DNA of 64,000 nucleotides from Acidobacteriota bacterium. Lineage in GTDB: Bacteria > Acidobacteriota > Thermoanaerobaculia > UBA5066 > Gp7-AA6. The stretch lies in contig DAHUXD010000019.1 of NCBI GenBank assembly GCA_027307335.1, positions 6,712-70,711 on the forward strand. Direction: 5' to 3'. A model generated the notes under the pieces. That model was not told where the DNA came from and did not search any database. It saw only the letters and a list, made by a program, of their open reading frames with translations. Of the stretch, positions 12,969 to 46,986 are shown one piece after another (positions within the stretch are counted from its first letter, which is position 1; the number at the start of each line of letters is the position of its first letter). The position numbers were made by a program, and so were the translations under genes.

Positions 12969-15806
12969 TCAGGGAGCCGACGGGAAGGTCTTGACGATGA
13001 GCGCCGCGGCCTGGCCGCGCGTGACCGGGTTTTCCGGACAGAAGTTGCCGCCCCCGCAGCCTCCGGTGATGCCCTCCTGGGCGGCCGCCTCGATGTAGTC
13101 GGCCGCGAAGGAGTCGGCGGGCACGTCCCCGAAGACGGTACCCGTCGCCGGCGGCGGCAGGTACCCCGGTCCGTGCTCGGCGCGCAGCAGGAAGACCATC
13201 ATCTGGGCGCGGGTCACCGGCGAGAGCGGACAGTAGTCCGGATACCCGCAGCCGGCGGTGATCTGGTCGAGGAGGAACTGCTGAATGTACGGACCGAAGC
13301 CCGAGCAGCGATCGACGTCGGCCATGGGAAGCGTCTGGTTCGGGCCGCCGAAGACCGGATCGAAGGGGTAGCCCGCGCCGCGCATCGCCTTCTCGACCTG
13401 CACCGCGGCCTGACCGCGGTTGAGCGGCGTGCCCGGGCAGAAGTTCCCGCCGCCGCAGCCGCCGGTGACGGCGCGCTGCGTGAGCGCGACGACGCTCTCG
13501 TGGAACGGAGACGCCGGCGGAACGTCGGCGAAGTCGAAGACGAACGCGCGCAGGGAGTCCTGCTGCGGCTCGCCCGTCACGACCTTCACCGCGACGGCGC
13601 CGGCGGCGCCGGCGGGCGTGATCGCGGCGATGTGCGTGTCGTCCACCACCGCGAAGTCGGCGGCGGCGGTCTGCCCGAAGAAGAGGCCGACGACGGACGC
13701 GAAGCCGGTGCCGGAGACGATGACGAGGGAGTCCCCGGAGGCCGGGCCGGAGGGCGGCGCCACGCCGGCGATCGACGGCGGCGGCGTGGCGGACCGGTGG
13801 ATGTGAAAGACGCTGCCGAATCCGGCGAGGTGCAGGAGGCTGCCGTCGCTCGCGATGGCGAGGCTCGAGCCGTTGTCGTTGTCGACGGTCGGAAGCCCGC
13901 GGTCGTACGGGCTCCACGTGAGTCCCGCGTCGGTGCTGACGTACACCGCCCGGCCGTCCGGCGAGAGCGGCAGATTCGTGGCGGCGTAGGCAGTCGAGGG
14001 ATTCGCGGGGTCGAAGACGATCGAAAGGATGCCGTTCGTCTGCGGCATCCCGGAAAACGAGGGCTGCCAGCTCGCGCCGCGATCGGCGCTGCGGTATAGG
14101 GGAGCGATCATCGTGACCGGGTTCCCGCCCCCGCCGCCGAGCATCAGGTTCGGGTCGGTGGGACTCTGGGCGAAGGCGGTCAGCTGCGCCCCCCCGAGAC
14201 CCGTGTCCGACGGACTCCAGGTCGCGCCGTGGTCGGTGCTCACCTGATTCAGCCCGTCCACGAGGCCGTAGAGGCGCCCGTCGACCGTCGCGTCCGCCAT
14301 CATCCAGTCGACGAAGTACGTGCCCGAGCTCGCGGGTGCCCAGGAGTCACCGCCGTCGTCGGAGAAGTAGAGATGGTTGGCGAGCACGTAGACGCGCCCG
14401 GCATCGGTCGGGGGCACGACGAACTCGGTGGCGTCGATGGCCGCACCCGCCGGAAGCGCTCCGGTGGCCGTCCAGCTCGCGCCCGCGTCGGTGCTGCGGT
14501 AGATGCCGCCGCGGTCCATGAGGCAGACGTAGACGGTCTCGGGCGACCCGGGCTGCACGGTCATTGCGGTGATCCGGCCGGTCGGCAGGTCGGTGGAGAC
14601 GTTCGCCCAGGTCGCCCCGGCGTCGAGGCTCCGGAAGACGCCGGCGCCGCCTCCCCAGGGATTCGCATACCAGAGCGTCGCGTCCGCGGCCGGATCGACG
14701 ACGACCCATCCGAAGAGCAGACCGGCGAACGCCTCGCCGGGGCCGGTCCAGGTGGCGCCGCCGTCCGTCGTCCGGAAGACGCCGTTGCCGGCGGAGCCCG
14801 CGAACCAGAGGCCCGCAGCGGCTCCCGGCACGAGCGCGCTCGGTGCGATCGACGGCAGTCCGACGTTGACCGGCGACCAGGTGGCGCCAGAATCCGTGCT
14901 CACGCGGACCCCTCCGGTCATGCTCAAGACGTAGACCCCGGGGCCGAACGGATCGATCGCGACGCCGATGTACGCCTCGCTCGGAAGGGTCGCGACGGCA
15001 TCCCAGGTCACGCCACCGTCGGCGCTGCGGAAGACGGCGCCGCTCGATTCCCCGGTGATCTCGTTGAAGGAGTTGGCCGCTGCCCAGGCGACGAGCGGGT
15101 CGGCGGGGTTGACCGCCACCTGGGACACGTTCTGCGCGAGCGGCGCGAACAGGACCGATGTCCACTGATCGCCCCCGTCGACGCTGCGAAAGAGGCCGTG
15201 GCCCTGCATGTTGGCGAAGAGAATCCGGCCGTCAGCGGGCGAGACGCCGAGGGAAGTGATGCCGAACTGACCCGGCGGAAGGCCCTCGTTGGCGGCCGCG
15301 TTCCACGAACAGCCGCCGTCGTCGGTTCTCCAGACGCCGGCGAGCGTGGCGGCGTAGACGGTCGACGGGGCCTGCGGATCGACCACGATCGCGTACGCTT
15401 CCTCGTAGGCGCTCGTCGGATTGACGATGTCCTGAGAGACCCAGTGATCCCCTCGATCCGTCGACTTTGCGACGAAGGAGCTGTACGTCGAGGCGTACAG
15501 CGTCGAGGGCGACGTCGGGTCGATCGCGAGTCCCGTGATCCACCGCGCCGGCAACCCCGTGTCGATCGTCGTCCACGTCTGGCCGCCGTCCGTCGAGCGG
15601 AAGACGCCCGCGTACTGCGCGGCCGCGTAAACGACTTGCGGGTTCGTCGGGTCGGCCACGAGCGCCGGCACGGCGCCGGCCCAGGGCCCGGTCGTCGTCC
15701 ATTCGTTGACGCCGCCGCGCGCCGTCACGGCGGCGGCGAGACAGACGGCGAAGCCCGCGAACGCCCGGAGCCCCGGGGCCCGAACCGCCCGAATTGTGCG
15801 AATCAT
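12969..15806 (-). CDS. Large secreted BNR/Asp-box repeat (beta-propeller) surface protein with an IPT/TIG domain and a C-terminal triple SLH-like module
   Basis: Has a signal peptide (MIRTIRAVRAPGLRAFAGFAVCLAAAV), more than 10 SxDxGxTW repeats, and three C-terminal repeats of F.DVP...GITGGCGGGNFCP..VTRGQ. Confidence 0.75.
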   Translation of the reverse strand: MIRTIRAVRAPGLRAFAGFAVCLAAAVTARGGVNEWTTTGPWAGAVPALVADPTNPQVVYAAAQYAGVFRSTDGGQTWTTIDTGLPARWITGLAIDPTSPSTLYASTYSSFVAKSTDRGDHWVSQDIVNPTSAYEEAYAIVVDPQAPSTVYAATLAGVWRTDDGGCSWNAAANEGLPPGQFGITSLGVSPADGRILFANMQGHGLFRSVDGGDQWTSVLFAPLAQNVSQVAVNPADPLVAWAAANSFNEITGESSGAVFRSADGGVTWDAVATLPSEAYIGVAIDPFGPGVYVLSMTGGVRVSTDSGATWSPVNVGLPSIAPSALVPGAAAGLWFAGSAGNGVFRTTDGGATWTGPGEAFAGLLFGWVVVDPAADATLWYANPWGGGAGVFRSLDAGATWANVSTDLPTGRITAMTVQPGSPETVYVCLMDRGGIYRSTDAGASWTATGALPAGAAIDATEFVVPPTDAGRVYVLANHLYFSDDGGDSWAPASSGTYFVDWMMADATVDGRLYGLVDGLNQVSTDHGATWSPSDTGLGGAQLTAFAQSPTDPNLMLGGGGGNPVTMIAPLYRSADRGASWQPSFSGMPQTNGILSIVFDPANPSTAYAATNLPLSPDGRAVYVSTDAGLTWSPYDRGLPTVDNDNGSSLAIASDGSLLHLAGFGSVFHIHRSATPPPSIAGVAPPSGPASGDSLVIVSGTGFASVVGLFFGQTAAADFAVVDDTHIAAITPAGAAGAVAVKVVTGEPQQDSLRAFVFDFADVPPASPFHESVVALTQRAVTGGCGGGNFCPGTPLNRGQAAVQVEKAMRGAGYPFDPVFGGPNQTLPMADVDRCSGFGPYIQQFLLDQITAGCGYPDYCPLSPVTRAQMMVFLLRAEHGPGYLPPPATGTVFGDVPADSFAADYIEAAAQEGITGGCGGGNFCPENPVTRGQAAALIVKTFPSAP

Positions 15807-16828: not shown

Positions 16829-17542
16829 ATGGCGGAGACCCGCGTCGCGCTCGTCACCGGCGGCACCCGAGGCATCGGCGCGGCGATCGTGCGGCGCCTC
16901 GCCGCCGACGGCTTCGCGGTGTTCCTCTCCGGCCGCACCGACGAATCGGTCCGGACCGCGCTCGCGCGCTTCGCGAAGGAGGGCCTCTCGGTCCGCGGCT
17001 TTCCCGCGGACGCGCGGCGCGAGGAGGACCAGCGGCGCCTCGTCGAGTCGGCGGCGCGCGAGGGCGGGCGTCTCGACGTGCTCGTCAACAACGCCGGCAT
17101 CGGCCACTTCGCGCCCGTCGACCAGATGGAGCCGGAGCGCTTCCGCGAGGTGCTCGAGACGAACCTGTTCGGCCCGTTCTACGCGGTGCGCCACGCGGCG
17201 CCGATCATGAAGAAGGGCGGCGGCGGCTTCATCGTCAACATCGCCTCCCTCGCGGGCGTCAACGCGTTCGCGGGGGGAGCGGCCTACAACGCCTCGAAAT
17301 TCGCGCTCCTCGGATTCTCGGAGGCGGCGATGCTCGACCTCCGCCACGCCGGCGTCCGGATGGCCACCGTCCTGCCGGGCTCCGTCGCCACCGACTGGAA
17401 CCACTCGCACGGCAACCAGGACGCCTCGTGGATGCTCGCGCCCGAGGACGTGGCCGAGGCCGTGGCGGACCTGGTGCGGTTCCCGGACCGCGCGATCGCC
17501 TCGCGCATCGACCTGCGGCCGTCGCGGCCCCCGAAGAAGTAG
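16829..17542 (+). CDS. SDR-family short-chain dehydrogenase/reductase
   Basis: TGGTRGIGAA cofactor motif, NNAG, and the YNASK catalytic motif. Confidence 0.8.
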   Translation: MAETRVALVTGGTRGIGAAIVRRLAADGFAVFLSGRTDESVRTALARFAKEGLSVRGFPADARREEDQRRLVESAAREGGRLDVLVNNAGIGHFAPVDQMEPERFREVLETNLFGPFYAVRHAAPIMKKGGGGFIVNIASLAGVNAFAGGAAYNASKFALLGFSEAAMLDLRHAGVRMATVLPGSVATDWNHSHGNQDASWMLAPEDVAEAVADLVRFPDRAIASRIDLRPSRPPKK

Positions 17543-17560
17543 GGGCTCAGGACCCGGCGT

Positions 17561-18070
17561 TCACGCGCGCCGGAACGCGGCGCGGACCTCGGGCCGACGC
17601 ATCGCCCGGATCGCCGCGACGAGGAGAAGGCCCGCGACGAGAAGCCCGGCCAGGACCGGCGCGAAATTCCCGGAGCGGGGCAGGCGCGCCCAGACCCACG
17701 CGAATCCGGTCCCGAGCGCGACGGTCACCGCGAGCGCCAGCCACGCGACCAGCTCGAGCGCGCGTCGCGCCCACGGGCGAAGCCTCAGGAACTGGATCGA
17801 GATCCCGGCGACGCACGCGGCGATCGTTCCCTGCACGGCGACGACCGTCGGGAAGTGTCCCATGACCCAATCGACGGGAACGAAGCCATGGTCGCCGCGC
17901 GGCAGGAAGAACGCGACCACCGGTCCGGCGTTTCCGAGCTTCCAGACCACCCAGCCGATGAGGTCGAGCAGGAAACGGATCGAGGACAGAGCGAGGAACG
18001 CGCCGCCCACGACGTTGACGGACCGGGGCCGCTCCCCAGCGGACTCGGGCGCGATGCTCGCCGGCCCCAT
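17561..18070 (-). CDS. Hypothetical polytopic membrane protein
   Basis: Four predicted TM segments; sits downstream of the sortase-locus genes on the same strand. Confidence 0.4.
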   Translation of the reverse strand: MGPASIAPESAGERPRSVNVVGGAFLALSSIRFLLDLIGWVVWKLGNAGPVVAFFLPRGDHGFVPVDWVMGHFPTVVAVQGTIAACVAGISIQFLRLRPWARRALELVAWLALAVTVALGTGFAWVWARLPRSGNFAPVLAGLLVAGLLLVAAIRAMRRPEVRAAFRRA

Positions 18071-18098
18071 GCGCGAATCATAGGGCCCCCGGGTACGC

Positions 18099-19577
18099 TC
18101 AGGTCGCCTTGCCGGCGCCCTCCTTCAGGACCTTCGCGTACCACTGCTTCGCGAAGAGCGGCCGGATCTTCGTTCCCGTCGGTCCGATCTCGACACCCAC
18201 GATCAGGATGCCCTGCTCGAACAGGAAGGCGCCGTCGTTCGTCTTCCCGTCGTGGTCGTACTGGCCCTGCACCCGGAACTTGCCGCCGGTCGCCTCGAGC
18301 TCGCGCACCCGGATCTCTCCCGGCGCGGCGGTGACCGCGGCCCCGGCGCTGAGGTCGTCGAGGCTCACGAGTCCCTTCGTCCACGCGGGCAGGTCGACGT
18401 TCAGGAGCGCGAGCAGGGGACGCGCGTCCCGGCAGTGCGCCTCGATGCGGCCGGACGCGGCGCGGCCGATCTTCGCCTGGGGCGCCTCGAACGTGCCCCA
18501 CCACTCCCGCGCGTCGGCCGCGCCGCTCCCGTGGACGTGGGCGAGCGCGACGCGCATGCCGGAAGCATCGAAGGACAGGGGTCCGGTGACGTCCCAGCGG
18601 CGGATCGGGACGCTCGCGTCGAGGTCGCCCGTCAGACGATAGGTTCGCGTGCGGGCGGCGCCGCCGCGCACCGTGAGCGTCACCTTCCCGTTCGCGACGC
18701 CCTCCTCCGATGCGATCGACACGGTTGCCTTCGGACCGTTGCCCTCGAGGCGCACGCCTTCCGGGAAGCGCACGTACTCCTCGATCGCGTGGAGGGCGTC
18801 GGTCGCGAGGTCGATGTCGAGCTGGACGCGGAACTCCCGCAGCGCCCGGGGCATGGGGGCGTTGATGGGCTCGAACGCTCGCGAGGACGTCGCGAGCTTC
18901 CCGGAGAGGGCGACGCGGTCGGGCGAGCGCCCGACGGTCAGCGCCCCGCCGTCCCACTGGAGCACCGCGTCCTCGATCTGCGCGAGGCGCGTCGGCCAGA
19001 GATAGAAGCCGCCAGAGACGCGCGCGGGGCCCCGGTAGTGGAGCTGGTTGACCCAGAGGCTCTCGGCGCGATCGATCGAGACGCCCCGCACGTCGATGTG
19101 AAACGGGTTCGACTCGACGCGGAACTCCTGGCCCGGCTCCTTCAGCGGCGGGTCGGAGAAGCCCGGGATCGGAGGCAGGAGAGGCACGTCCGCCGTCTTG
19201 ACCTGGCCGGGCTCGAGCTTCGAGCGCAGCGCGAACGAGAGGCCGGAGCCGACGAGCCGCGTGCAGCGGAACGTGCGGTGGAGCAGCGCCACGATCGAGT
19301 AGTCGAGCTCGGCCTGCTCGAGATCGATCGCCCACTGCACGTTGGGATCGCTGCCCCGAAGCGAGAGATTGCGCAGCCGCACGTGGCCGGGCCGCGTCGA
19401 CACGGCCTCGCCCCAGTCGATGCGGAAGCTCTGGGGATGCGCGTTGATGATCGCGCGCAGCTTCGGTCCCGAAAGGAGCCAGCGCGTCAGCGGGAAGTAC
19501 GCGGCGTAGAACGCGACCGGCAGGAGGAGGACGAGACCGAGGAGCCACGCGACGAGCCGTCGGCGTCGGCCCCTCAC
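18099..19577 (-). CDS. Hypothetical protein with N-terminal signal-anchor and a large extracytoplasmic domain
   Basis: Starts MRGRRRRLVAWLLGLVLLLPVAFYAAYF; 492 aa; not Arg/Pro-biased. Confidence 0.55.
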   Translation of the reverse strand: MRGRRRRLVAWLLGLVLLLPVAFYAAYFPLTRWLLSGPKLRAIINAHPQSFRIDWGEAVSTRPGHVRLRNLSLRGSDPNVQWAIDLEQAELDYSIVALLHRTFRCTRLVGSGLSFALRSKLEPGQVKTADVPLLPPIPGFSDPPLKEPGQEFRVESNPFHIDVRGVSIDRAESLWVNQLHYRGPARVSGGFYLWPTRLAQIEDAVLQWDGGALTVGRSPDRVALSGKLATSSRAFEPINAPMPRALREFRVQLDIDLATDALHAIEEYVRFPEGVRLEGNGPKATVSIASEEGVANGKVTLTVRGGAARTRTYRLTGDLDASVPIRRWDVTGPLSFDASGMRVALAHVHGSGAADAREWWGTFEAPQAKIGRAASGRIEAHCRDARPLLALLNVDLPAWTKGLVSLDDLSAGAAVTAAPGEIRVRELEATGGKFRVQGQYDHDGKTNDGAFLFEQGILIVGVEIGPTGTKIRPLFAKQWYAKVLKEGAGKAT

Positions 19578-19700
19578 GAGGACGTTTTCCGGGGATCCAG
19601 GGCGCCGAGGCGGCGGTGCGTTTCAACGGGCACGCACGGATCTTAGGCAAGGGACGGGCCAAGACCCGGCGTCTCGACCGGAAAACTCGAAAAAGGCTGC

Positions 19701-20324
19701 CTAACGAAGGCCGCGCGCTTCGAGCTTCGAGCTTCGGATTTCTCTCTGGGCGACGGCGTCCACCCGGCGAGCGGTCCACACCAGCCGGTACGGCGCCGGG
19801 CCGAGGAAGTGAAAGGGATAGCAGGTGACGAGCGTCAGCCGATCTCCCGGGAGCGGGGAAATCGCGCCGAGGTCGTCGGGCTTCACGACTCGTCGGCTCT
19901 CGAGGCGGTAGGTGGCGGCGAGGCCGCCGCCGTGCAGCGTCACGACGTCGCCGGCCCGCGCTCCCTCGAGCCGGCGGAAGAACGTGTCCCGGTGCGCGGA
20001 GATGACGCACGACGACGGCGCGCCGTCGCCGGGCCAGCCGGTTCCACGGAGGTGGCCCGGGCCCTTGCGGAGGGTCTCGTCGGACGTGCCCTCGAAAACG
20101 ACGGCGTCGAGCCCCACGCGGGAGAGCGTCAGTCGTCCGAGCGGCTCGCCTTCGCGCCGGGCCGCGCGGGTCGCCGGAGGGGCGTCGGTTTTCGCGACGA
20201 GTGCGGCCGCGCCGTGCTCCTGGGCGCGCGCAGCGATCCACCAGTGCATCGCGGGCGGGACGAGCAAGAGAGCGCCCGCGAGGATCAGCAGGTCGCCGAG
20301 AGAGCGGAGATACCAGGCGCGCAT
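19701..20324 (-). CDS. Sortase-family transpeptidase
   Basis: N-terminal TM helix, catalytic His in ISAHRDTFF, Cys in LTLVTCYPF, and Arg in YRLVWTARR. Confidence 0.65.
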   Translation of the reverse strand: MRAWYLRSLGDLLILAGALLLVPPAMHWWIAARAQEHGAAALVAKTDAPPATRAARREGEPLGRLTLSRVGLDAVVFEGTSDETLRKGPGHLRGTGWPGDGAPSSCVISAHRDTFFRRLEGARAGDVVTLHGGGLAATYRLESRRVVKPDDLGAISPLPGDRLTLVTCYPFHFLGPAPYRLVWTARRVDAVAQREIRSSKLEARGLR

Positions 20325-20390
20325 CGGATCACCGCGCTTCCGGAGCAGCGGCCGACCCGGGAAGGGCCGGCCGCGAGCCCGGAAACCGCC

Positions 20391-20999
20391 TCAGAAGAAG
20401 CGGCGAGCGAGGAGCCCGCCGGCGATGAGGGCCAGACCGGCGGCCGCGTAGAGCGGGTCGGCGGTGGCCGTCTTCGGCATCTCGACGGGAGCCGGCGCGG
20501 GCGGAGCCGGCGGCGGAACCGCGGCCGGAACATGGGCCGGCGGCGGAACCGGACGGGGCTTGTACACCGTCACGTTCGGGGGCTGCGCCGGAGGCGCCAC
20601 GGCCACGAAGCTGATCTCCTTGCGATCGAACACTTCTCCCGCGCGGTTGATGGCGAGGAAGGTGAGCTTGTGCGGTCCGGGCGTCACGTTCTCGAGCGTG
20701 ACGATGTTGTTCTCGTCCCGCATCCGTCCCTGGCGCGAGTCATCGAGGAACACCTGGACGTCCGGACGCGGCATGGTGTTGACGTCGCGACGCACGTCGT
20801 TGTCGCCCGGGATCTCGGTGTTCACGATGACCTGCACGGTCGGGCCAGTCACCGTTGCGCCTTCGACCGGCTGCATGATCTTGAGGCGGTAGTCGTTGTG
20901 CGTTGGACCGCCCCCATAGACGTTGGCGTTCTGGGCCCAGACGAACGCTGCGGCCGCCAGCCCCAGAACCGCGGCGGCGATCGTTTTGAGGTGTCTCAT
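20391..20999 (-). CDS. Secreted sortase-substrate candidate with an MPKTATA sorting signal
   Basis: Signal peptide MRHLKTIAAAVLGLAAAAFVWAQ, a ~150-aa domain, a Pro-rich linker, then MPKTATADP followed by a hydrophobic segment and RRFF. Confidence 0.65.
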   Translation of the reverse strand: MRHLKTIAAAVLGLAAAAFVWAQNANVYGGGPTHNDYRLKIMQPVEGATVTGPTVQVIVNTEIPGDNDVRRDVNTMPRPDVQVFLDDSRQGRMRDENNIVTLENVTPGPHKLTFLAINRAGEVFDRKEISFVAVAPPAQPPNVTVYKPRPVPPPAHVPAAVPPPAPPAPAPVEMPKTATADPLYAAAGLALIAGGLLARRFF

Positions 21000-21228
21000 C
21001 GGAACCTCCTCCTGACGTGCCGGCCCACCTGCCGGCCACGATGGAAATTGGATCAGTTCGCGACCCCTCCCCGAATCTTCCAGACGCATCAATTCCCTTG
21101 GCCGGCTGGCGGCGATGGCGACGCCAAGTCGCGGCAGCGGCGGTACTTGCAATCCCATGGTGCGGATACATCAGGCGCGGGCGCGGCGCGCATGCGAGTC
21201 TTCTCCCGCAGACAGGAGGGTGCTCTTC

Positions 21229-21480
21229 ATGGCAATGGTGATTCGCGAGGACTGCATCAACTGCGGCAGCTGCGAGCCGAGCTGCCCGAACACGGCGATC
21301 TCGGCGGGCGAGAACATCTACCTCGTCGACCGCGAGCGTTGCACCGAGTGCGTCGGCGCGTTCGACGAGCCGCAGTGCGTGGGCGCGTGCCCGATCGAGG
21401 GATGCATCACGCAGGACACGGAGAACCCCGAGTCCCGCGAGGCGCTCCTCGCGCGGTACCAGCAGCTCCACCCGAACTAG
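21229..21480 (+). CDS. 2x[4Fe-4S] ferredoxin
   Basis: CINCGSCEPSCP and CTECVGAFDEPQCVGACP motifs. An AGGAGG-like RBS lies upstream. The start was chosen at MAMVIRED rather than the ATG at 21115. Confidence 0.7.
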   Translation: MAMVIREDCINCGSCEPSCPNTAISAGENIYLVDRERCTECVGAFDEPQCVGACPIEGCITQDTENPESREALLARYQQLHPN

Positions 21481-27588: not shown

Positions 27589-29763
27589 TCAGTGCGGGGG
27601 GCGCGTCGGCGTGGGCGCCGGCGCGCGCAGGAGCTGCTGGAGCATGTCGATGGCGCCGGAGGTCTTGCCGCCGCCGAGCGCGTCGCCGAGCGCCTTTCCC
27701 GCCGTCCCGCCGACCCGGTCGGCCGCCTCGCGGGCGAGGAGGCGCCGCCCGAGCTCGAGCACCAGGCTCTCGTCGACCGAGACGCTCGGGGAGGTCACGG
27801 GCCCGGTCGCGCGAAAAGGAATCGCGAGCGTCCCGGACGCGTCGGCGAGATAACGCCCGGCGTTTCCGAGGCTCTTCAGCACGGGCGCGCCGAGCACGAC
27901 GCGCCCCTCGTAGGAAATCGTCCGGTCGAGACCGATCGAGCCCTGCGCGGAGCCGGAGACGTCGGGTCCGCTCATCGTCACGTCCGGCGTCGCGAGCCGG
28001 CCGTCCGCGAGCTTCAACGACGTCTCGAGCTTCGTGAAGTGCGTGCGCTCGAGGCTTTCGGGGACCTGGAATCCCGCGACTCGGCCCACGGCGCCGAGCG
28101 CCCGCGAGACGGCCGGCATGAGCTCCACCGTCCGCAGCTCGGCGTCGGTGACCGCGAGGTGTCCGTCGCCGCGCCCCGTCTTCGAGATCGCGTCCCAGCC
28201 GAGGCCGCGGCTGACCAGCGCGAAGTTTCCGTTCAGCGTTCCCGAGAGGACGTTGCGCACCGCCGTCGTCGACTCGACGAGCGGCTGCGCCCGGATCCCG
28301 TGCAGCTCGAACGCGACGCGGGACTCGGCGCCGGGTTTTCCGAAGTCGCTCCGAAGATGCGCGTCGAGCGTGCCGCCGGAGACGCCGGCGGAGGACGCGA
28401 GCGTGAGAACTCCCTTGTCCCAGGTCCAGTCGGCGCGCAGATTTTCGAAGGGCAGCTGCCGGAGGCGTCCCGCCCCGGCGGAGATGCGCCCCGACAGAGG
28501 CGCCGCGCCCTTCGACTCGACCGTGGCGTGAACCGCCGGCGCCTCCAGCAGCGCCTGCCCCTCGCGGGTCACGCGGAGGGACGCCGCGTCCGCCGATCCG
28601 CTCACGTCGAGATCCGAGGCGGTGCCCTGGATCCGCGCCTCGAGGCGGACGCTGCCGGCGAGCTTCGTGCCCTCGGGGAAGCGGCCGGCGATGCCCGGCA
28701 GGCCCGTCACGTGGTCGAGCGGGACGTCGCCGGGCGTGCCGACCCGCAGGTCGACCTCGGGCGTCTCGTGAAAGCGATCGACGCGTCCCTCGATCTGGAT
28801 CGGCAGCTCGGCGACGTCGAAGAGCGAGCGGCCGATCGCGAGCGTTCCCTTCGCCGCGTCGAGCGTGAGCGTGACCGTCCCGTCCGCCGCGGGCATCCGC
28901 GCGCCCGACGCGCCCGAGGGATCGAGCGCGACCTTCCCCGCGATCGCGAGCGCGCCGAGGAGCTTGCCCTGGACGTTCCCCTCCAACGACAGGACGCCGG
29001 GGTCGTTCTCGCGGAACGCGGCCACCCACGGTGCGAGGCGCCCGAGCGCGACGGCCTTCGCCGAGAAGCGTGCATCGAGAGGCGCCTCGCCGACGGGCCC
29101 CGCGCCCGGCGGCGGACCGAGGGTTCCCTGCAGCGTCACGTTGCGCCCCTCGTCCGCGAGGAAGCGAGCGGCGACGTCGAAGCGCGCCGGCGTGCGCGCG
29201 CCGATGTCCCGCAGGTGCGCGGTGAGGTCGTCGAGAGAGAGCGTGTCGGCGCGGCCGGCCCGGTGGTCCACGAAGACCGCGCGGCCGCCTTCGAGATCGA
29301 TGCGAGAGACCAGCAGGACGGCGGCCGCCGTCTGCGATGCCGGCGGGCTCTCGCGCTGCCCCGCGGACACGAAGTCGCTCACGCTCAGCTTGCCGTCGGC
29401 GCCTCGCTCGACGGTCACGGTGACGCCGCGAAGCTCGAGGCGCCGCACCTCGACGCGCCGGGAGAGCAGCGGCCAGAACGCGACCTTGATCGAGGCGCGG
29501 TCCGCCGTCAGGAGCGGGGGCCCGGAAGGGTCGCGGCGGTCGTGCACCACGAGACGCTCGACGCCCGCGCCGAGGCCCGAGAGGATCTGGAGACGCATCG
29601 CGCCGATCTCGACCTTGCGGTGCAGCGAGGACTCCGCGGCGGCGACGACGCGCCCGCGCACGGAGTCGAGCGACACGAGATAGGGAAGCGCGAGGAGAAC
29701 CAGGAGGACGAGCGCCGCGATCGAGGCGGCGGCGATGGCGACGCGGCGGCCGGTGCGGGACAT
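27589..29763 (-). CDS. AsmA-family outer-membrane-assembly-like protein
   Basis: N-terminal signal anchor followed by a long beta-rich region with Gly/Ala-rich repeats typical of the AsmA family. Confidence 0.6.
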   Translation of the reverse strand: MSRTGRRVAIAAASIAALVLLVLLALPYLVSLDSVRGRVVAAAESSLHRKVEIGAMRLQILSGLGAGVERLVVHDRRDPSGPPLLTADRASIKVAFWPLLSRRVEVRRLELRGVTVTVERGADGKLSVSDFVSAGQRESPPASQTAAAVLLVSRIDLEGGRAVFVDHRAGRADTLSLDDLTAHLRDIGARTPARFDVAARFLADEGRNVTLQGTLGPPPGAGPVGEAPLDARFSAKAVALGRLAPWVAAFRENDPGVLSLEGNVQGKLLGALAIAGKVALDPSGASGARMPAADGTVTLTLDAAKGTLAIGRSLFDVAELPIQIEGRVDRFHETPEVDLRVGTPGDVPLDHVTGLPGIAGRFPEGTKLAGSVRLEARIQGTASDLDVSGSADAASLRVTREGQALLEAPAVHATVESKGAAPLSGRISAGAGRLRQLPFENLRADWTWDKGVLTLASSAGVSGGTLDAHLRSDFGKPGAESRVAFELHGIRAQPLVESTTAVRNVLSGTLNGNFALVSRGLGWDAISKTGRGDGHLAVTDAELRTVELMPAVSRALGAVGRVAGFQVPESLERTHFTKLETSLKLADGRLATPDVTMSGPDVSGSAQGSIGLDRTISYEGRVVLGAPVLKSLGNAGRYLADASGTLAIPFRATGPVTSPSVSVDESLVLELGRRLLAREAADRVGGTAGKALGDALGGGKTSGAIDMLQQLLRAPAPTPTRPPH

Positions 29764-29809
29764 GGTGGTCCGGGAGGCTGCAGGATCCGAGCCAGCCGGG
29801 GACCGCTCG

Positions 29810-30229
29810 TCAGTCATCGGAGCTCACGCCCTTACGGGACGCCTTCACGCGTCCGCGGCGCGTCTTGGATTCGAGGCGGCGCTCCCGCGCGGCGGTCGTG
29901 GGTCTCGTCTTCCGGCGCGGCCGCGGAACCACCGCCGCCCGGCGGACGAGCTCGGCGAGCCGCTCCCGCGCGGCCGCGCGGTTCTGCGCCTGCGTGCGGT
30001 GCGAGCGGCTGTCGATCAGAAGAACGCCCTGCTCGCTCACGCGCCGGCCGGCGAGACGCGCGAGTCGCCGCTTGACGTCCTCGGGCAGCGTCGACGCCCG
30101 GAGATCGAGGCGCAGCTCGACGGCCGTGGCGACCTTGTTGACGTTCTGGCCGCCCGGTCCCGACGCGCGCACGAAGCGCTCCTCGAGCTCCGCCTCCGGA
30201 ATCGCGAGCGCGGGCGAGACGGTCAGCAT
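29810..30229 (-). CDS. arfB: Peptidyl-tRNA hydrolase ArfB (alternative ribosome rescue factor B)
   Basis: GGQ motif (ASGPGGQNVNKV) and a basic C-terminal tail. Confidence 0.8.
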   Translation of the reverse strand: MLTVSPALAIPEAELEERFVRASGPGGQNVNKVATAVELRLDLRASTLPEDVKRRLARLAGRRVSEQGVLLIDSRSHRTQAQNRAAARERLAELVRRAAVVPRPRRKTRPTTAARERRLESKTRRGRVKASRKGVSSDD

Positions 30230-30365: not shown

Positions 30366-31235
30366 ATGCCCGAAGGCAACACCATTCACTGGCTGGCGCG
30401 CGTGCACACGCGCGACTTCGCGGCACGCCGGGTGCGCGCCGACTCGCCGCAGGGCCGCTTCGCCCGCGAGGCGCGGCGGCTCGACGGCCGTCTCTTCGAA
30501 TCCGCGGAGGCCTACGGCAAGCACCTCTTCCACCACTGGAGCGGCGGACTCGTGGTCCACGTGCACCTCGGGATGGCAGGTTGGTTCTACCGGCACCCCG
30601 CCCCGGCGCCGCCGCCGCGGCCGACCGTCCGCCTGCGCCTGGCGACTCGAGACGTCGCGACGGACCTGATCGGGCCGCCGACGTGCGAGCTGATCCCGGA
30701 GTTCGCGCGCCGGAAGCTTCTCGCGCGTCTCGGCCCCGATCCGCTGCGTCGGGACTTCGACCCGGATCGCGCGCTCGCCGAGCTCGTCCGGCGGCCGCGC
30801 CGCACGATCGGCGACGCCCTCCTCGATCAGCGCGTCCTCGCCGGTGTCGGCAACATCTATCGCGCCGAGGCGCTGTTCCTGACCGGCATCCACCCGAAGC
30901 GGGCGTCCGGGAACGTCTCGGCGGAGGAGTGGGAACGCCTCTGGAAGACGGTGCGCGCGCTCATGCGGCGCGGCGCCGTGCGCGGCCGCATCCGGACGAT
31001 CGAACCGGACGAGCCTCCGGCGCATCCGCTCGCGGGGCGCGCACCCGCGGATGCCTTTTACGTTTACCAGCAGGCGATCTGTCGGCGCTGTGCCTCGCCG
31101 CTCGAGGAGTTCCCGATGTCCGCGCGCCGGATGTTCGCGTGTCCCCGCTGCCAGCCCGAGCCGCGTCGCGGCTCGAAGCGCCGCGCGAAAGAGAAAAACG
31201 GCCGCGATCGGAAACGCCGCGCCGCCGCTCCCTGA
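30366..31235 (+). CDS. Fpg/Nei-family DNA glycosylase (formamidopyrimidine/endonuclease VIII-like)
   Basis: N-terminal MPEGNT catalytic Pro2/Glu3, an H2TH region, and a C-terminal zinc finger CRRC...CPRC. Confidence 0.75.
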   Translation: MPEGNTIHWLARVHTRDFAARRVRADSPQGRFAREARRLDGRLFESAEAYGKHLFHHWSGGLVVHVHLGMAGWFYRHPAPAPPPRPTVRLRLATRDVATDLIGPPTCELIPEFARRKLLARLGPDPLRRDFDPDRALAELVRRPRRTIGDALLDQRVLAGVGNIYRAEALFLTGIHPKRASGNVSAEEWERLWKTVRALMRRGAVRGRIRTIEPDEPPAHPLAGRAPADAFYVYQQAICRRCASPLEEFPMSARRMFACPRCQPEPRRGSKRRAKEKNGRDRKRRAAAP

Positions 31236-31533
31236 CGCCGTTCTCCTTCGGGAGCGGTGAACGCCGGAAACGACAAAAACGGTGCGCGGCACGTCGTCGC
31301 CGTCGCGGCCAGGGAGCTCGAATCGTCGCAACCGGCATGCCACCAGGGACGACGGTGGGTGGCGCGCGCGTTCGCTCGTGACGTTGTGCGGCGCGGGTCG
31401 ATCCGGGTCGTCACGCCGGCGAGGGATACGAAATGAGAGACGACGCGCCGACCCGCCACCGAGAGCCTCCGAAGAGAAGCGAAACGGCTGCGGCCCCGCG
31501 GTGTCCGGGGGGCCGCATCCGTTGCGCTCGAAG

Positions 31534-32298
31534 TCACGCCCTGCGGCGGATCAGGTAAGAACCGAGGAGCAGCGCTCCGCCCGCGAGGAGCAGAGCACCG
31601 TCGTTGGAGGCGGTCGCGGGCATTCTCGGCCGCGTGCGATTCTCCGCGGTCGACAAGCTGCTCGGGGTCGACGGGGAGGTATTGCGATCGGAGGAGGCCT
31701 GCGGCGAGGAATACGTGCTGCCGGAGCTCGAGCTCGTCGGACCCGCGATCGAGCTGTCGCTTCCCGTCGTCTTCGCCATGCTCGACGAGGTCCCGTAGCT
31801 CGAGGCATTGCCGTTCGAGTCGTTCGTCTGCGTGTAGGCGCTGGACTGAGGCGGCGTCGTGCCGCCCGAGTTCGCGCCCTCGACCACCGAACCCGAGCTC
31901 GTGAAGTTGAGCTCCTTCTTGTCGATGATCTCGTTCGACTTGTTCTTGGCGACGAGCGCGAGCTTGTGCGGCCCCGCCGAAACGTTGTCGATCTCGATGA
32001 CGTTCTCCGCATCCTTCATCGTGCCGCGGCGCGTGCCGTCGAGCCAAACGTCGACCAGAGGGCGGGGCATCTTGTTCGGCCCCAGCGTCTGGCCGCCGAC
32101 CTGCTCGGGGACCGTCGTGTCGACGACCACGCGGACGGTCGAACCGGTGATCGCCGCGCCGTCGCTCGGTTCGATCACCTTCAGCCGATAGTCGTTCTTG
32201 GTCGGACCCGCGGTGTTCTCGTCCGCGTTCTGGCCGAGAGCGACAGCCGCGAAGGTACTGACGGCCAGCACCGCGATGGCGAGTCTGGTTCGAGTCAT
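31534..32298 (-). CDS. Secreted sortase-substrate paralog with an MPATAS sorting signal
   Basis: Its N-terminal domain is homologous to that of 20391-20999 (NDYRLK...GPHKL). It then has a Ser/Thr-rich linker and RMPATASNDG followed by a hydrophobic helix and RRRA. GGAGG RBS upstream. Confidence 0.6.
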   Translation of the reverse strand: MTRTRLAIAVLAVSTFAAVALGQNADENTAGPTKNDYRLKVIEPSDGAAITGSTVRVVVDTTVPEQVGGQTLGPNKMPRPLVDVWLDGTRRGTMKDAENVIEIDNVSAGPHKLALVAKNKSNEIIDKKELNFTSSGSVVEGANSGGTTPPQSSAYTQTNDSNGNASSYGTSSSMAKTTGSDSSIAGPTSSSSGSTYSSPQASSDRNTSPSTPSSLSTAENRTRPRMPATASNDGALLLAGGALLLGSYLIRRRA

Positions 32299-32475
32299 AA
32301 ATTCCCTCCTCGGGTAAGGTCGTTCGGCCCTGTTGCCGAACATATCGATGACGTTGCAAGGAAGGTGCCGCGAAAATGCTCTCTGCGCTCTTTGTGCGCG
32401 CGCGGCACGCTTCCTGCAAAGGCGCGGCATCGGGCAATAGAGCCCGCCCAGCCGATTCCACAAAGGAGAAGCCCG

Positions 32476-32727
32476 ATGGAGAACATCGAGGATCGGACCG
32501 AGGAGTTGCCGACCCGTCCCGGCTCGAGCGAGCCGACGACCGACGATGACGATCCGACCGTCCCGGGCGCGCGCACCGAGCCGCGACGCGGCGGCCAGGA
32601 GCCGGTGCAGGAATATCCCGGCGAGGGCGTGCGGTCGCACTATCCGACCGATCCCGTGACGGGCCGCGATGGAGAGGCGTCGGGCCGACTCGGCTCGGAC
32701 GAGTCCGCCGGCGACGAGGGAGTCTGA
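32476..32727 (+). CDS. Small highly acidic, predicted disordered protein
   Basis: AAAGGAG RBS. 83 aa rich in D, E and P (TTDDDDPTVP...DESAGDEGV). Confidence 0.45.
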   Translation: MENIEDRTEELPTRPGSSEPTTDDDDPTVPGARTEPRRGGQEPVQEYPGEGVRSHYPTDPVTGRDGEASGRLGSDESAGDEGV

Positions 32728-32752
32728 GGCTTTTTCTTTTCCAGGAGGAACC

Positions 32753-32995
32753 CTGATGAGGTCGATCCGTAGGCTGATCTCGTTGATCGCTTTCCTGCTT
32801 CTCGCGGTCGCGCTGGCGAGCGGATGCCAGAAGCGGGAGACGACCACGACCGAAACGACGACCACGACGTCCATGTCGACGACGCCGGCCGGGGGCGCGT
32901 TGGACACGACGCCCTCGATGGCGACGACGCCATCCGAGAGCATGTCGACGTCGACCTCTTCGTTGCCCGAGACCACGCCGACCCGCGTTCCCTGA
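32753..32995 (+). CDS. Thr/Ser-rich lipoprotein
   Basis: AGGAGG RBS and a lipobox (LAVALASGC). Confidence 0.5.
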   Translation: MMRSIRRLISLIAFLLLAVALASGCQKRETTTTETTTTTSMSTTPAGGALDTTPSMATTPSESMSTSTSSLPETTPTRVP

Positions 32996-33059
32996 CGCAC
33001 CGCCGCCGGCCGATCGGCGGCGGCCGCCGGCCGGGTCCTGCGCCTCATAGGATGGAGGC

Positions 33060-36000
33060 GTGAGCCGGGATCCGCTCCAGAGCTTCCATGAGGCCGTCCG
33101 CGAGTGGTTCGCGGAGACCTTCGCCGCGGCGACGCTCGCGCAGGCGAAGGGCTGGCCCCCGATCCGCCGCGGGGAGTCGACGCTCCTCCTCGCTCCCACC
33201 GGCTCCGGCAAGACGCTGGCGGCATTTCTGGCCGCGATCGACCGCCTCATGTTCACGCCTGAGCCCGAGCGCGCGGCGCGCTGCCGCGTCGTCTACGTCT
33301 CGCCGCTCAAGGCGCTCGCCGTCGACGTCGAGCGGAATCTCCGCGGCCCGATCGCGGGCATCGCGGCCGTCGCGGCGCGCCGCGGGCTGCCGCATCGGGT
33401 GCCGTCCGTCGCGATGCGCACGGGCGATACGCCCGCCTCCGAGCGCGCGCGCCTGGTCCGCGTGCCGCCGGACATCCTGATCACGACTCCGGAGTCGCTG
33501 TATCTCCTCCTGACGTCCCGCGCCCGGACGACGCTCGCCGGAGTCGAGACGGTGATCGTCGACGAGATCCACTCGGTCGCCGGCAGCAAGCGCGGCGCCC
33601 ACCTCTTCCTCTCGCTCGAGCGCCTCGAGGAGGCGCGGCGCGCCGACGGTCCGGGCCCGCTGCAGCGCATCGGCCTCTCCGCGACGCAGCGCCCCCTCGA
33701 GGAGATCGCGCGCCTGCTCGGCGGGGGCCGCGTCGTGGGGCGCCGCGGCGCGTGGAAGCCGCGTCCGGTCACGATCGTCGACACGCGCGTCCGCAAGGCC
33801 TTCGATCTGCGCGTCGAGGTGCCGGTCGAGGACATGGCCCGGCCGGGCGGCGCGGGCGAGCCGGCGTCCGGCGAGAGGCCCTCGCCGGAGTCGATCTGGC
33901 CGTCGATCTATCCGCGCCTCGTGGAGCTCGTGCGCGCGCACCGCTCGACCATGATTTTCGCGAACAGCCGGCGCCTCGCGGAGCGGCTCGCCGCCGCGAT
34001 CAACGAGACGGCGGGCGAAGAGCTCGCGCTCGCGCACCACGGCTCGGTCGCGCGCGAGCAGCGGCAGGAGATCGAGGAGCGGCTGAAGCGCGGCACGCTG
34101 CCGGCGATCGTCGCCACCTCCTCGCTCGAGCTCGGCATCGACATGGGCGCCGTCGATCTCGTCGTGCAGATCGAGGCGCCGCCGTCCGTCGCATCGGGGG
34201 TGCAGCGGATCGGTCGCGCGGGACACTCGGTCGGCGAGGTGTCGCGCGGCATCGTGTTCCCCAAGTACCGCGGCGACCTCGTGGCGGCGGCCGCCGCGAC
34301 CGCCCGCATGAAAGAGGGACTCGTCGAGGAGACGTTCTATCCGCGCCACCCGCTCGACGTTCTCGCGCAGCAGATCGTTGCGATCGCGTCGGAGGGCGAG
34401 CGGGACGTCGAGTCGCTCTACCATCTCGTGCGCGGAGCGGCGCCCTACGCGGACCTGCCGCGGAACGCCTTCGAGGGCGTCCTCGACATGCTGTCCGGCC
34501 GCTATCCCTCCGACGAGTTCGCGGAGCTCCGGCCCCGCGTGACGTGGGACCGCGCCTCCGGACGGATCCGCGCGCGGGAGGGCGCGCAGCGGATCGCCCT
34601 CGTCAACGCCGGCACGATTCCCGACCGCGGCCTCTACGGCGTGTTCCTCGCCGCCGAGGAGGGCCGCCGCAGCCGACGCGTGGGCGAGCTCGACGAGGAG
34701 ATGGTCTTCGAGTCCTCGCCGGGCGACGTGTTCGTGCTCGGCGCGTCGTCGTGGCGCATCGACGAGATCTCGCACGACCGCGTGCTCGTCTCTCCGGCGC
34801 CGGGCGTGCCCGGCAAGACGCCGTTCTGGCACGGGGACCGGCCGGGCCGCCCGACCGAGTTCGGGCGCGCGATCGGAGCGCTGACGCGGCGACTCGCCGC
34901 GGCGCCCGCGCCCGAGGCGATGCGCCGCCTGCGCGAGGAGCACGGCCTCGACGAGCGGGCGGCGGCCAACTTGGTCGCGTACCTGGCCGAGCAGGTGCGC
35001 GCGACGGGCGAGGTGCCGAGCGACCGCACCCTCGTCGTCGAGCGGTACATGGACGAGATCGGCGACTGGCGCGTCTGCCTCCTCTCGCCCTGGGGGGCGC
35101 GCGTGCACGCGCCGTGGGCGACCGCGATCCTCGCCCGGCTGCGCGAGCGCACCGGCGCGGACGTCGAGGCGCTCTGGTCCGACGACGGCATGGTCTTCCG
35201 CCTGCCGGAGTCGAGCGAGCCGCCCGAGGTCTCGCTCTTCCTGCCCGCGGGCGCGGAGATCGAAGACCTCGTCGTGCGGAGCCTCGGCGAGACGTCCCTC
35301 TTCGCCGCGCGCTTCCGTGAGAACGCGGCCCGCGCGCTGCTGCTGCCGCGGCGCCACCCCGGGCGGCGCAGTCCGCTCTGGGCCCAGCGCAAGCGCGCCG
35401 CCGATCTCCTCGCCGTGGCGTCGCGATACGGGTCGTTCCCGATCCTGCTCGAGACCTACCGCGAGTGCCTGCGCGACGTGTTCGACCTGCCGGCCGCCGT
35501 CGACGTCCTGAGGCGGATCGCCGCGAAGGAGATCCGGGTCCTGACGGTCGACGCCGCCCGGCCGTCCCCGTTCGCGGCCTCGCTCCTCTTCTCCTACGTC
35601 GCGAACTTCATCTACGACGGCGACGCCCCGCTCGCGGAGCGGCGCGCGCAGGCGCTGTCCGTGGACCAGGCGCAGCTGCGCGAGCTCCTCGGCGAGGAGG
35701 AGCTGCGCGAGCTCCTCGACCCCGACGCAATCGCCTCGCTCGAGCGCTCCCTGCAGCGGCTCGAGGGGCGCCGCGTGCGCCACGCCGACGGCGTCCACGA
35801 CCTGCTCCTCGCGCTGGGAGATCTGACGGCTGCCGAAGTCGCGGAGCGCAGCGATCCGCCGGAGGCGGCCGCCGGCTGGCTCGAGGGGCTGCGGACGGAG
35901 CGCCGCGTCTTCGCGGCCGAGATCGGCGGCTCGACGCGCTTCGCCGCGGCCGAGGACGCGGGCCGGCTGCGCGAGGCGCTCGGCGTGTCGCCGCCGTCCG

Positions 36001-37586
36001 ACCTTCCGGCGGCGTTTCTCGCGCCCGTCGACGACCCGCTCGGCGACGTGCTCTCGCGCTACGCGCGCACGCACGGGCCGTTCCGGACGGAGGACGCCGC
36101 GCGGCGCTTCGGGCTGCCGGAGACCGCGGTGCGGCGGACGCTCGCGGAGCTCGCCGCGCGCGGACGGGTCGTCGAGGGAGACTTCCTGCCCGGCGGGCGG
36201 ACGCGCGAGTGGTGCGAGGCCGGCGTGCTGCGGTCGATCAAGCGGCGGTCGCTCGCGCGGCTGCGCCGCGAGGTCGAGCCGGTCGAGCCCGCGGTCTTCG
36301 CGCGCTTCCTGCTCGACTGGCACGGCGTCCTCCGGCCGGCCGTCGGGGGCGATGCGCTGCGGATCGCCGCCGAGGGACTCCACGGCGCGGCCATGCCGGC
36401 GTCGGCGCTCGAAGCCGACGTCCTGCCGGCGCGCGTCATGGGCTATCTCCCCGGCGGCCTCGATCCTCTCCTCGCGGCCGGCGACCTCACCTGGCGCGGC
36501 GTCGAGCCGCTCGGGAAGGCCGACGGGCGGATCGCGATCTATGCCGCGGGCCGCGCGCCCGCGCGTCCGGGACCGGTCGACGACAGCGAAGCGGACGACG
36601 CGCCGGCGGCGGCGGTCCGGGACGCGCTCGCGCGGCGCGGCGCGCTCTTCTTTCCCGACCTGAGGACGGAGACCGGCGTCTTCGCCGGCGACCTCCTCGC
36701 CGCGCTCTGGCGGCTGGTCTGGCGCGGCGAGGTTACCAACGACACGCTCGCGCCGCTGCGCTCCCGGCTCGCCGCGGCCGCCGAGCCGCCGCGCGGCCGC
36801 CGCGGAGCGCCGAAGCGGGGAGGACCTCCGGGCGGCGAGGGCCGCTGGTGGCTCGTGCCGCCGGCGGAGCGCGGCGGCTCGAGCGACACGGCGCGGCTCG
36901 CGGAGCTCGCGAACGACCTGCTCGCCCGTCACGGCGTCGTGACGCGTGAAGCCGTCGCCGCCGAGGGAATCCCGGGCGGCTTCGGCTCGCTCTATCCCGT
37001 CTTCCGCGCGATGGAGGAGGGGGGCCGCGTGCGCCGGGGCTACTTCGTCGCCGGGCTCGGCGCCGCGCAGTTCGCGCTGCCGGGAGCGGCCGACCGGCTC
37101 CGGGCGGTGCGCGCGGAGCATGAGGAAACAACGACGGTCGTCCTCGCGGCGACCGATCCCGCGAATCCCTACGGGGCGGCTCTCCCGTGGCCGCCGGGCG
37201 GTCCCGCCCGCCCCCAGCGCGCGGCCGGTGCGCACGTGGTGATTCGCGACGGCGAGCTGGTCGCCTGGCTCGGCCGGGCCGAGACGAACCTTCTGACGTT
37301 CCTTCCCGCCGAGGAGCCGGGGCGCGCGGCGGCGGCGGCCGATCTCGCTCGCGCGCTCGCGGGTCTCGTGGAGTCGGGACGCAGGCGGGTCGTGCTCGTC
37401 GCGCGCGTGGACGGCGGCGACCCGGACGCCACGCCGCTCGCCGGGCGGCTCGTGGAGGCGGGATTCGTGCGCGGGAGCCGCGGCTACATGAAGCGCCGCG
37501 CCGCGCCGCCGGCCGGTTTGCCGCCCGCGGCCGCCCGAGCCTCGCGGGCTCCGGCGGGGCGGCGGATCCTCCGGCCGATGGGTTGA
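33060..37586 (+). CDS. lhr: Lhr-type large ATP-dependent helicase (DEAD/DEAH superfamily 2)
   Basis: Walker A (APTGSGKT), DEIH box, motif VI (QRIGRAGH), and total length of 1508 aa typical of Lhr. Confidence 0.85.
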   Translation: MSRDPLQSFHEAVREWFAETFAAATLAQAKGWPPIRRGESTLLLAPTGSGKTLAAFLAAIDRLMFTPEPERAARCRVVYVSPLKALAVDVERNLRGPIAGIAAVAARRGLPHRVPSVAMRTGDTPASERARLVRVPPDILITTPESLYLLLTSRARTTLAGVETVIVDEIHSVAGSKRGAHLFLSLERLEEARRADGPGPLQRIGLSATQRPLEEIARLLGGGRVVGRRGAWKPRPVTIVDTRVRKAFDLRVEVPVEDMARPGGAGEPASGERPSPESIWPSIYPRLVELVRAHRSTMIFANSRRLAERLAAAINETAGEELALAHHGSVAREQRQEIEERLKRGTLPAIVATSSLELGIDMGAVDLVVQIEAPPSVASGVQRIGRAGHSVGEVSRGIVFPKYRGDLVAAAAATARMKEGLVEETFYPRHPLDVLAQQIVAIASEGERDVESLYHLVRGAAPYADLPRNAFEGVLDMLSGRYPSDEFAELRPRVTWDRASGRIRAREGAQRIALVNAGTIPDRGLYGVFLAAEEGRRSRRVGELDEEMVFESSPGDVFVLGASSWRIDEISHDRVLVSPAPGVPGKTPFWHGDRPGRPTEFGRAIGALTRRLAAAPAPEAMRRLREEHGLDERAAANLVAYLAEQVRATGEVPSDRTLVVERYMDEIGDWRVCLLSPWGARVHAPWATAILARLRERTGADVEALWSDDGMVFRLPESSEPPEVSLFLPAGAEIEDLVVRSLGETSLFAARFRENAARALLLPRRHPGRRSPLWAQRKRAADLLAVASRYGSFPILLETYRECLRDVFDLPAAVDVLRRIAAKEIRVLTVDAARPSPFAASLLFSYVANFIYDGDAPLAERRAQALSVDQAQLRELLGEEELRELLDPDAIASLERSLQRLEGRRVRHADGVHDLLLALGDLTAAEVAERSDPPEAAAGWLEGLRTERRVFAAEIGGSTRFAAAEDAGRLREALGVSPPSDLPAAFLAPVDDPLGDVLSRYARTHGPFRTEDAARRFGLPETAVRRTLAELAARGRVVEGDFLPGGRTREWCEAGVLRSIKRRSLARLRREVEPVEPAVFARFLLDWHGVLRPAVGGDALRIAAEGLHGAAMPASALEADVLPARVMGYLPGGLDPLLAAGDLTWRGVEPLGKADGRIAIYAAGRAPARPGPVDDSEADDAPAAAVRDALARRGALFFPDLRTETGVFAGDLLAALWRLVWRGEVTNDTLAPLRSRLAAAAEPPRGRRGAPKRGGPPGGEGRWWLVPPAERGGSSDTARLAELANDLLARHGVVTREAVAAEGIPGGFGSLYPVFRAMEEGGRVRRGYFVAGLGAAQFALPGAADRLRAVRAEHEETTTVVLAATDPANPYGAALPWPPGGPARPQRAAGAHVVIRDGELVAWLGRAETNLLTFLPAEEPGRAAAAADLARALAGLVESGRRRVVLVARVDGGDPDATPLAGRLVEAGFVRGSRGYMKRRAAPPAGLPPAAARASRAPAGRRILRPMG

Positions 37587-46917: not shown

Positions 46918-46986
46918 TTTGCCTCCACGTTTGCGAGGCGCAATCTATCCCACGCGCGAGAAGGGCCGCCGGCGGCGCGGAGAAGC

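Follow-up and report, generated by a model that had tools for sequence, protein, structure and literature searches.

What does a sortase do in a member of the Acidobacteriota, and on which proteins does it act? This question is raised by a window of 64,000 nucleotides (nt; the window is the whole stretch of DNA that was analyzed) from a soil-type Acidobacteriota genome of the class Thermoanaerobaculia (GCA_027307335.1, contig DAHUXD010000019.1, positions 6,712 to 70,711). It carries a sortase gene directly behind the gene of a secreted protein with a C-terminal sorting signal. The gene pair, its adjacency, the catalytic residues of the enzyme and the tripartite signal of the secreted protein can be read directly from the window. 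The pair is probably a dedicated two-gene sortase-target cassette of the Thermoanaerobaculia, accompanied by one unlinked target, and the product would be an immunoglobulin (Ig)-like domain on a stalk, most likely fixed to peptidoglycan.

Sortase, substrates and their conservation

The sortase is encoded at 19701-20324 (-) and comprises 207 amino acids (aa), with an N-terminal membrane anchor (residues ~9-32) followed by the catalytic domain. It was matched by the Pfam model PF04203 (Sortase) at 5.7e-22 and 78.2 bits (cutoff 26.6) and by the general sortase model TIGR01076 with 79.3 bits, which is above the cutoff of 39.35. In an alignment with 19 homologues, reaching down to 37% identity, His111 (in HRD), Cys168 (in TLVTC) and Arg180 are invariant. 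The triad of His, Cys and Arg that had been named in an initial inspection without database searches, hereafter the sequence-only reading, is therefore complete. By its profile matches and its alignment, the protein is a member of the sortase superfamily.

The gene of substrate 1 lies at 20391-20999 (-), as an open reading frame (ORF) confirmed by reading of the sequence, and the sortase gene starts 66 nt downstream of it. The 202 aa of the secreted protein are divided into a Sec-type signal peptide (~1-23), an Ig-like beta sandwich (~30-136), a Pro/Ala-rich linker (~137-173), the sorting motif MPKTAT (residues 174-179, nt 20463-20480 (-)), a hydrophobic helix and a basic tail, so that the C-terminus reads ...VE-MPKTAT-ADPLYAAAGLALIAGGLLA-RRFF. 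Substrate 2, an orphan paralogue of 254 aa at 31534-32298 (-), begins like substrate 1 with a signal peptide and the Ig-like domain, followed by a Ser/Thr-rich linker of ~90 aa, the motif MPATAS (residues 226-231, nt 31606-31623 (-)), a helix and the tail RRRA (...RPR-MPATAS-NDGALLLAGGALLLGSYLI-RRRA). The N-domains of the two proteins share 38-44% identity, and no sortase gene adjoins substrate 2. The sequence-only reading had described a secreted protein with MPKTATADP, a helix and RRFF directly upstream of the sortase, a paralogue 11 kb away ending in MPATASNDG, a helix and RRRA, and a Pro-rich linker in one as opposed to a Ser/Thr-rich linker in the other. All of these features were found again in the two sequences.

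When all six frames of the window were scanned for a C-terminal [LMIVAN]PxT[AGSN] motif with a hydrophobic run and a basic tail, only the two substrate ORFs were returned. Both combine a signal peptide with the motif, helix and basic tail of an LPXTG-type signal at the C-terminus, and judged from these sequence features the pattern is not a product of chance. The profiles built for such signals gave marginal scores, with 15.8 (substrate 1) and 13.6 against a cutoff of 15.9 for TIGR01167 (LPXTG_anchor) and 13.8 against 20 for PF00746.

Two further observations concern the surroundings of these features. Near the N-terminus of substrate 1 (residues 22-35, window 20900-20935 (-)), the tetrapeptide AQNA at the predicted signal-peptide junction and the motif GPTxN a few residues on are near-invariant throughout the substrate family, a conservation that exceeds what a cleavage site usually needs. 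Divergently oriented to substrate 2, a small Thr-rich ORF is located at 32753-32995 (+), with …LLAVALASGC… as its lipoprotein-like signal; it is probably real, since its third-position G+C is 0.89.

The conservation of the pair was surveyed with one genome per GTDB species. In total, 54 loci were found, all of them in metagenome-assembled genomes (MAGs) of Acidobacteriota/Thermoanaerobaculia. An in-frame LPxT[AG][ST] motif with helix and basic tail is present in 51 of these. In the other three, the signal is followed by a longer tail (L036), the gene is frameshifted (L019) or the locus lies at a contig edge (L037). Among the 51 signals, position 1 is occupied by L (46), M (3) or I (2), position 2 by P (50), position 3 by K (22), A (8), H (7), E (6) and others, position 4 by T in every case, position 5 by A (32), G (18) or S (1) and position 6 by S (37) or T (14). 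Close relatives carry MPKTATN, and the C-terminal motif is kept in all of the 27 direct homologues of substrate 1. The linkers of the family are 36-96 aa long (median 47) and either Pro/Ala-rich or Ser/Thr-rich.

In 44 of the 54 loci, the next gene downstream, on the same strand, encodes a sortase homologue. The proposal that the window holds a real sortase next to a cognate substrate with an evolutionarily conserved motif is thus borne out by the orthologues. The flanking genes vary by subclade: an amidase, a ferredoxin, a short-chain dehydrogenase/reductase (SDR) and an aldo-keto reductase (AKR) in the window, purC, RadA and leucyl aminopeptidase in loci of the L034 type, and an Lhr helicase and a Fapy glycosylase in L008/L009. 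Because the flanks vary while the pair is kept, the pair itself is the conserved unit, and according to the survey sequences it recurs throughout the class Thermoanaerobaculia.

At least five genomes contain two copies and, like the window, have one sortase-linked and one orphan substrate. Between the Lhr and Fapy genes, three loci (L008, L009 and L023) encode a substrate of the second type together with its own sortase (5226-6603 in L008/L009), and the same position in the window (30366-37586) holds substrate 2 without a sortase. Since this site has the enzyme in one group and lacks it in the other, the comparison suggests that the cassette was duplicated and that one sortase was subsequently lost.

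A more distant sortase homologue (42% identity) was seen in a Bryobacterales MAG (L010, GCA_016716385.1, 3116-6621). Here, an unrelated protein of 250 aa with LPETAS, a helix and RRLQ at its C-terminus is encoded 2 kb upstream of the sortase, with three small ORFs in between, and a VWA-domain protein directly precedes and overlaps the sortase gene. The VWA protein was considered as a target and discarded, since it lacks a sorting signal. Possibly, a larger sortase locus of a different kind exists in this other acidobacterial order and, as its neighbourhood holds an unrelated LPETAS protein, the preference for LPxTA[ST] may extend across acidobacterial sortases.

The Ig-like domain of the substrates

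In the AlphaFold model, substrate 1 starts with a signal-peptide helix, continues as a beta sandwich of eight strands (residues 38-134, predicted local distance difference test score ~80-90) and a disordered linker, and ends in a helix. Searches against Pfam and NCBIfam yielded no family for the N-domain, and at E <= 0.1 the substrate proteins of the window reached no Pfam model for it. Foldseek against the PDB returned generic Ig/FN3-like folds only, among them the Fn3 modules of CbhA and the dimerisation domain of sulfite oxidase. The profile search that the sequence-only reading had recommended for the N-domain was carried out and likewise recovered only generic Ig-like relatives. Its description as a beta-domain of unknown function with ~130 aa therefore holds for the small beta domain without a family, and the size has to be reduced to ~100-110 aa.

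Against 1.84 billion representative proteins (a library clustered at 50% identity), the domain profile matched 257 at E <= 1e-3, of which 38 also passed E <= 1e-30. Single-domain proteins of ~200-290 aa make up the strong matches, with ~50 single-domain clusters among the top matches. Of the 49 best-scoring representative clusters, 33 carry an intact sorting signal, and the others are, by eye, mostly truncated or frameshifted gene calls. The weaker matches are repeats in giant proteins, which are assigned by Pfam to Big_6, Big_13, Big_7 and DUF4399. The likeness to these four families consists of weak profile matches and a generic Ig/FN3-like sandwich, whereas the substrates constitute a separate, small family of single-domain proteins (the 38 clusters at E <= 1e-30). 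Each search thus gave generic matches at most and no functional assignment could be made; the domain is a divergent bacterial Ig-like domain without a functional label. The searches define a small unnamed protein family, consisting of Ig-like domain, stalk and sorting signal, which could receive a family model.

Stand-alone relatives of ~135-145 aa (P0328, P0333, P0335, P0336, P0351, P0363) were observed besides. They possess a signal peptide, have neither stalk nor sorting signal and end in '...DRKEIHFTVLPP'; the Ig-like domain thus occurs in free, secreted form as well.

Sortase class and the proposed anchoring reaction

The NCBIfam models of the named sortase classes were used for the classification. 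The highest score was obtained with the class D model 'LPxTATN-specific' (NF058671; 106.1 bits, cutoff 140), followed by the class D model NF033746 (99.9, cutoff 165), class C (NF033745; 80, cutoff 160), class GN (TIGR03784; 75.6, cutoff 158.25) and class E (64, cutoff 160). Class D was also the top-scoring class for all 20 sortase homologues scanned; the NCBI name of some homologues is 'class D sortase'. In the PDB, the family profile matched best the class D sortase of Bacillus anthracis (2LN7, 112 bits), followed by a class C enzyme and then by the class D sortase of Clostridium perfringens (4D70). According to these comparisons, the enzyme is class D-like and unclassified.

A different PDB ranking resulted from the single sequence, for which class C sortases were the best matches (8t28, 71.5 bits). 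A polymerase of class C type, which would join the substrates head-to-tail via a conserved Lys into a pilus-like fibre, would also agree with the invariant Lys of the substrate family, which lies in a DRK motif where the Ig-like domain ends, and with the one to two dedicated substrates per genome. Such a fibre is nevertheless very improbable. Both the family profile and the NCBIfam scores favour class D. By eye, the homologue alignment contains no conserved lid motif, the pre-catalytic segment being short and variable, and no C-terminal membrane helix was seen in the sortase, which ends in a hydrophilic tail. Furthermore, each substrate is a single small Ig domain in which no YPKN-type pilin motif was seen, and the long disordered stalk resembles wall-spanning regions more than pilins.

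The sequence-only reading had tied the enzyme to the rare sortases of bacteria with outer membranes, as the sorting motif resembles LP[QK]T[AS]T, which has been proposed as the signal for Gram-negative sortases. This connection could not be maintained. The class GN model scores below both class D models and at less than half of its own cutoff, the PDB comparison points to class D, and the LPxTA signal of class D fits the motif equally well. By its profile scores, the enzyme lies outside class GN.

Where the signal is cut, which group accepts the protein, where the product resides and what its Ig-like domain does are matters of inference. Both targets would be exported by Sec and held in the inner membrane by the C-terminal helix and basic tail. 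The membrane-anchored sortase would then cleave LPxT|[AG][ST] after the Thr (MPKT|AT and MPAT|AS) through Cys168, His111 and Arg180. Following established sortase chemistry, a thioacyl-enzyme would form on Cys168 and the protein would be transferred to the amino group of a cell-wall precursor. The acceptor would most probably be the meso-diaminopimelate side chain of lipid II/peptidoglycan, by analogy with the class D sortase SrtC of B. anthracis, which attaches LPNTA proteins to diaminopimelate cross-bridges (PMC8225981). The predicted product is an Ig-like domain of ~105 aa on a low-complexity stalk of 36-96 aa, bound covalently to peptidoglycan.

This product would be located in the periplasm, at the outer face of the wall and beneath the outer membrane, because Acidobacteriota are Gram-negative and the window encodes a clear protein of the AsmA/DUF748/YhdP family at 27592-29823 (-) (DUF748, 75 bits, cutoff 50).

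Several points weigh against this proposal. The sortase stays below the curated cutoff of every named class, for which reason neither specificity nor acceptor can be transferred with confidence. About a third of the family signals (~35%) have Gly instead of Ala at position 5. Every step of the mechanism is drawn from sequence and analogy, the peptidoglycan chemistry of the uncultured hosts is assumed and the acceptor is putative. In addition, the Ig-like domain yields no clue to function, and the purpose of a wall-anchored protein under an outer membrane is hard to see.

The acceptor is also the point at which a second possibility has to be considered, namely that the substrates are cleaved as proposed and then transferred to a secondary wall polymer, to lipid or lipopolysaccharide, or to water, which would release them. 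The missed class cutoffs leave room for this, no acceptor is known to have been established for any Gram-negative sortase, and the genome encodes proteins with surface-layer homology (SLH) domains, which usually bind wall-linked secondary polymers. Gram-negative sortase systems are regarded as not well characterized (PMC8225981). We consider such an acceptor unlikely, as the closest relatives of the enzyme are wall-anchoring class D sortases. For sortases whose substrates have the signal, helix and basic tail, every characterized case is, to our knowledge, one of transfer to a wall precursor or to another protein.

A more far-reaching interpretation regards the Ig-like stalk protein as a structural element of the diderm envelope, either as a wall-bound spacer or tether to the outer membrane or as a sortase-built polymer. 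A Pro-rich stalk of 40 residues could span ~10 nm. Little probability is given to this interpretation. If true, it would provide the first defined role of a sortase in an outer-membrane bacterium and a fourth coupling of wall and outer membrane, after Lpp, Pal/OmpA and SLH-OmpM. Anchoring of the Ig-like domain to peptidoglycan by a class D-like enzyme is the preferred explanation.

Neighbouring genes and known sortase systems

Two further ORFs on the same strand follow the sortase gene. The first (18099-19577 (-)) encodes a protein of 492 aa, in which a membrane helix at the N-terminus is combined with a long, curved beta-sheet. This protein is probably AsmA-like (bridge-type lipid transfer); it has no detectable sequence similarity to the AsmA/DUF748/YhdP-family protein at 27592-29823. 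The second (17561-18070 (-)) encodes 169 aa, a multi-helix membrane protein by eye that is called the 4-TM gene below (TM, transmembrane helix) and was matched by no Pfam or NCBIfam model. All four ORFs are present at the positions given by the sequence-only reading, with gaps of 123 and 28 nt behind the sortase. Their third-position G+C is 0.86-0.93, and since such high values are expected for real genes in a genome of 71% G+C, all four match this expectation. A scan of 17400-21400 for promoters and terminators returned nothing beyond the shuffled expectation.

From this arrangement, an expanded anchoring machine of four genes around a sortase of class GN had been proposed. The common strand and the short gaps speak for it, and a homologue of the 492-aa gene is also located downstream of the sortase in a second, diverged locus (L019). 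The synteny check gave a different picture. Only the nearest relatives (L001/L014) have the 492-aa gene directly behind the sortase gene; an OsmC gene is interposed in L003/L015/L016 and a Fe/Mn superoxide dismutase gene in L019 (3001-6600). It is absent from ~38 other sortase loci. Homologues with 33-49% identity occur in L068, L069 and L070 with neither sortase nor substrate nearby, and in L068 the neighbours are OsmC, SDR and AKR genes. The 4-TM ORF was found only on contigs of identical sequence (e.g., NCBI GCA_027313945.1). It has no homologue in any related locus examined, among them L001, L003, L004 and L006, in which the 492-aa gene abuts the SDR gene, although L001 is 80% identical to the window. 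The four-gene operon was discarded on these grounds and, judged by synteny, both genes lie outside the sortase system. As the enzyme also misses class GN and its target has no VWA domain, the proposal as a whole is hardly credible, and the two-gene cassette remains the unit to be considered.

Elsewhere in the window, two large secreted proteins with C-terminal SLH domains are encoded at 12969-15806 (-) and 44461-46944 (-). Both have a TIG domain, which is combined with BNR/Sortilin repeats in one and with a beta-helix/NosD region in the other; the SLH repeats of the protein at 12969-15806 contain an unusual Cys pair ('GGCGGGNFCP'). SLH modules together with a sortase and AsmA/YhdP-type genes are an odd combination for Acidobacteriota and raise questions about the envelope of this class.

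The literature was searched for sortases in Acidobacteria or Thermoanaerobaculia and nothing specific was found. NCBI already labels homologues as 'class D sortase' and 'LPXTG cell wall anchor domain-containing protein', and the cassette is a refinement of known biology and not a discovery; it is well defined, testable and unsurprising to a specialist. We know of no sortase of an outer-membrane bacterium with a demonstrated substrate, acceptor or role. With two genes in ~1.3 kb, class-wide distribution, a clean LPxT[AG][ST] consensus and one or two substrates per genome, the cassette is compact and conserved enough to be tractable for reconstitution in vitro or in Escherichia coli.

Among the known systems, the 'marine proteobacterial' class GN is similar in organization, because a sortase (TIGR03784) adjoins its single VWA/LPXTG target (TIGR03788) in Gram-negative bacteria (Haft and Varghese, 2011, PMC3237569). 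Both have a dedicated sortase encoded beside an LPXTG-type target in a Gram-negative host. The acidobacterial cassette differs in the sortase clade, in the phylum and in a target with an Ig-like fold, no Pfam domain and no VWA; moreover, a second, orphan target is common.

Closer likeness exists to the class D sortases, i.e., SrtC of B. anthracis with BasH/BasI and YhcS of B. subtilis with YhcR, whose models and structure (NF058671, NF033746, 2LN7) match the window sortase best. An N-terminal membrane anchor, the absence of a lid and few dedicated substrates per sortase are shared. The same holds for the signal shape LPxT-A-[ST]: MPKTAT and MPATAS both continue LPxTA-like with S or T, as does MPKTATN in close relatives, and all 51 signals have S or T at position 6. 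Differences are the scores below the curated cutoffs (106 versus 140 and 100 versus 165), the frequent Gly at position 5, the unnamed Ig-like stalk substrate and the host, which belongs to the Acidobacteriota and has outer-membrane genes, whereas these class D enzymes come from spore-forming Firmicutes. Class D-like LPxTA specificity would thus reach beyond the Firmicutes.

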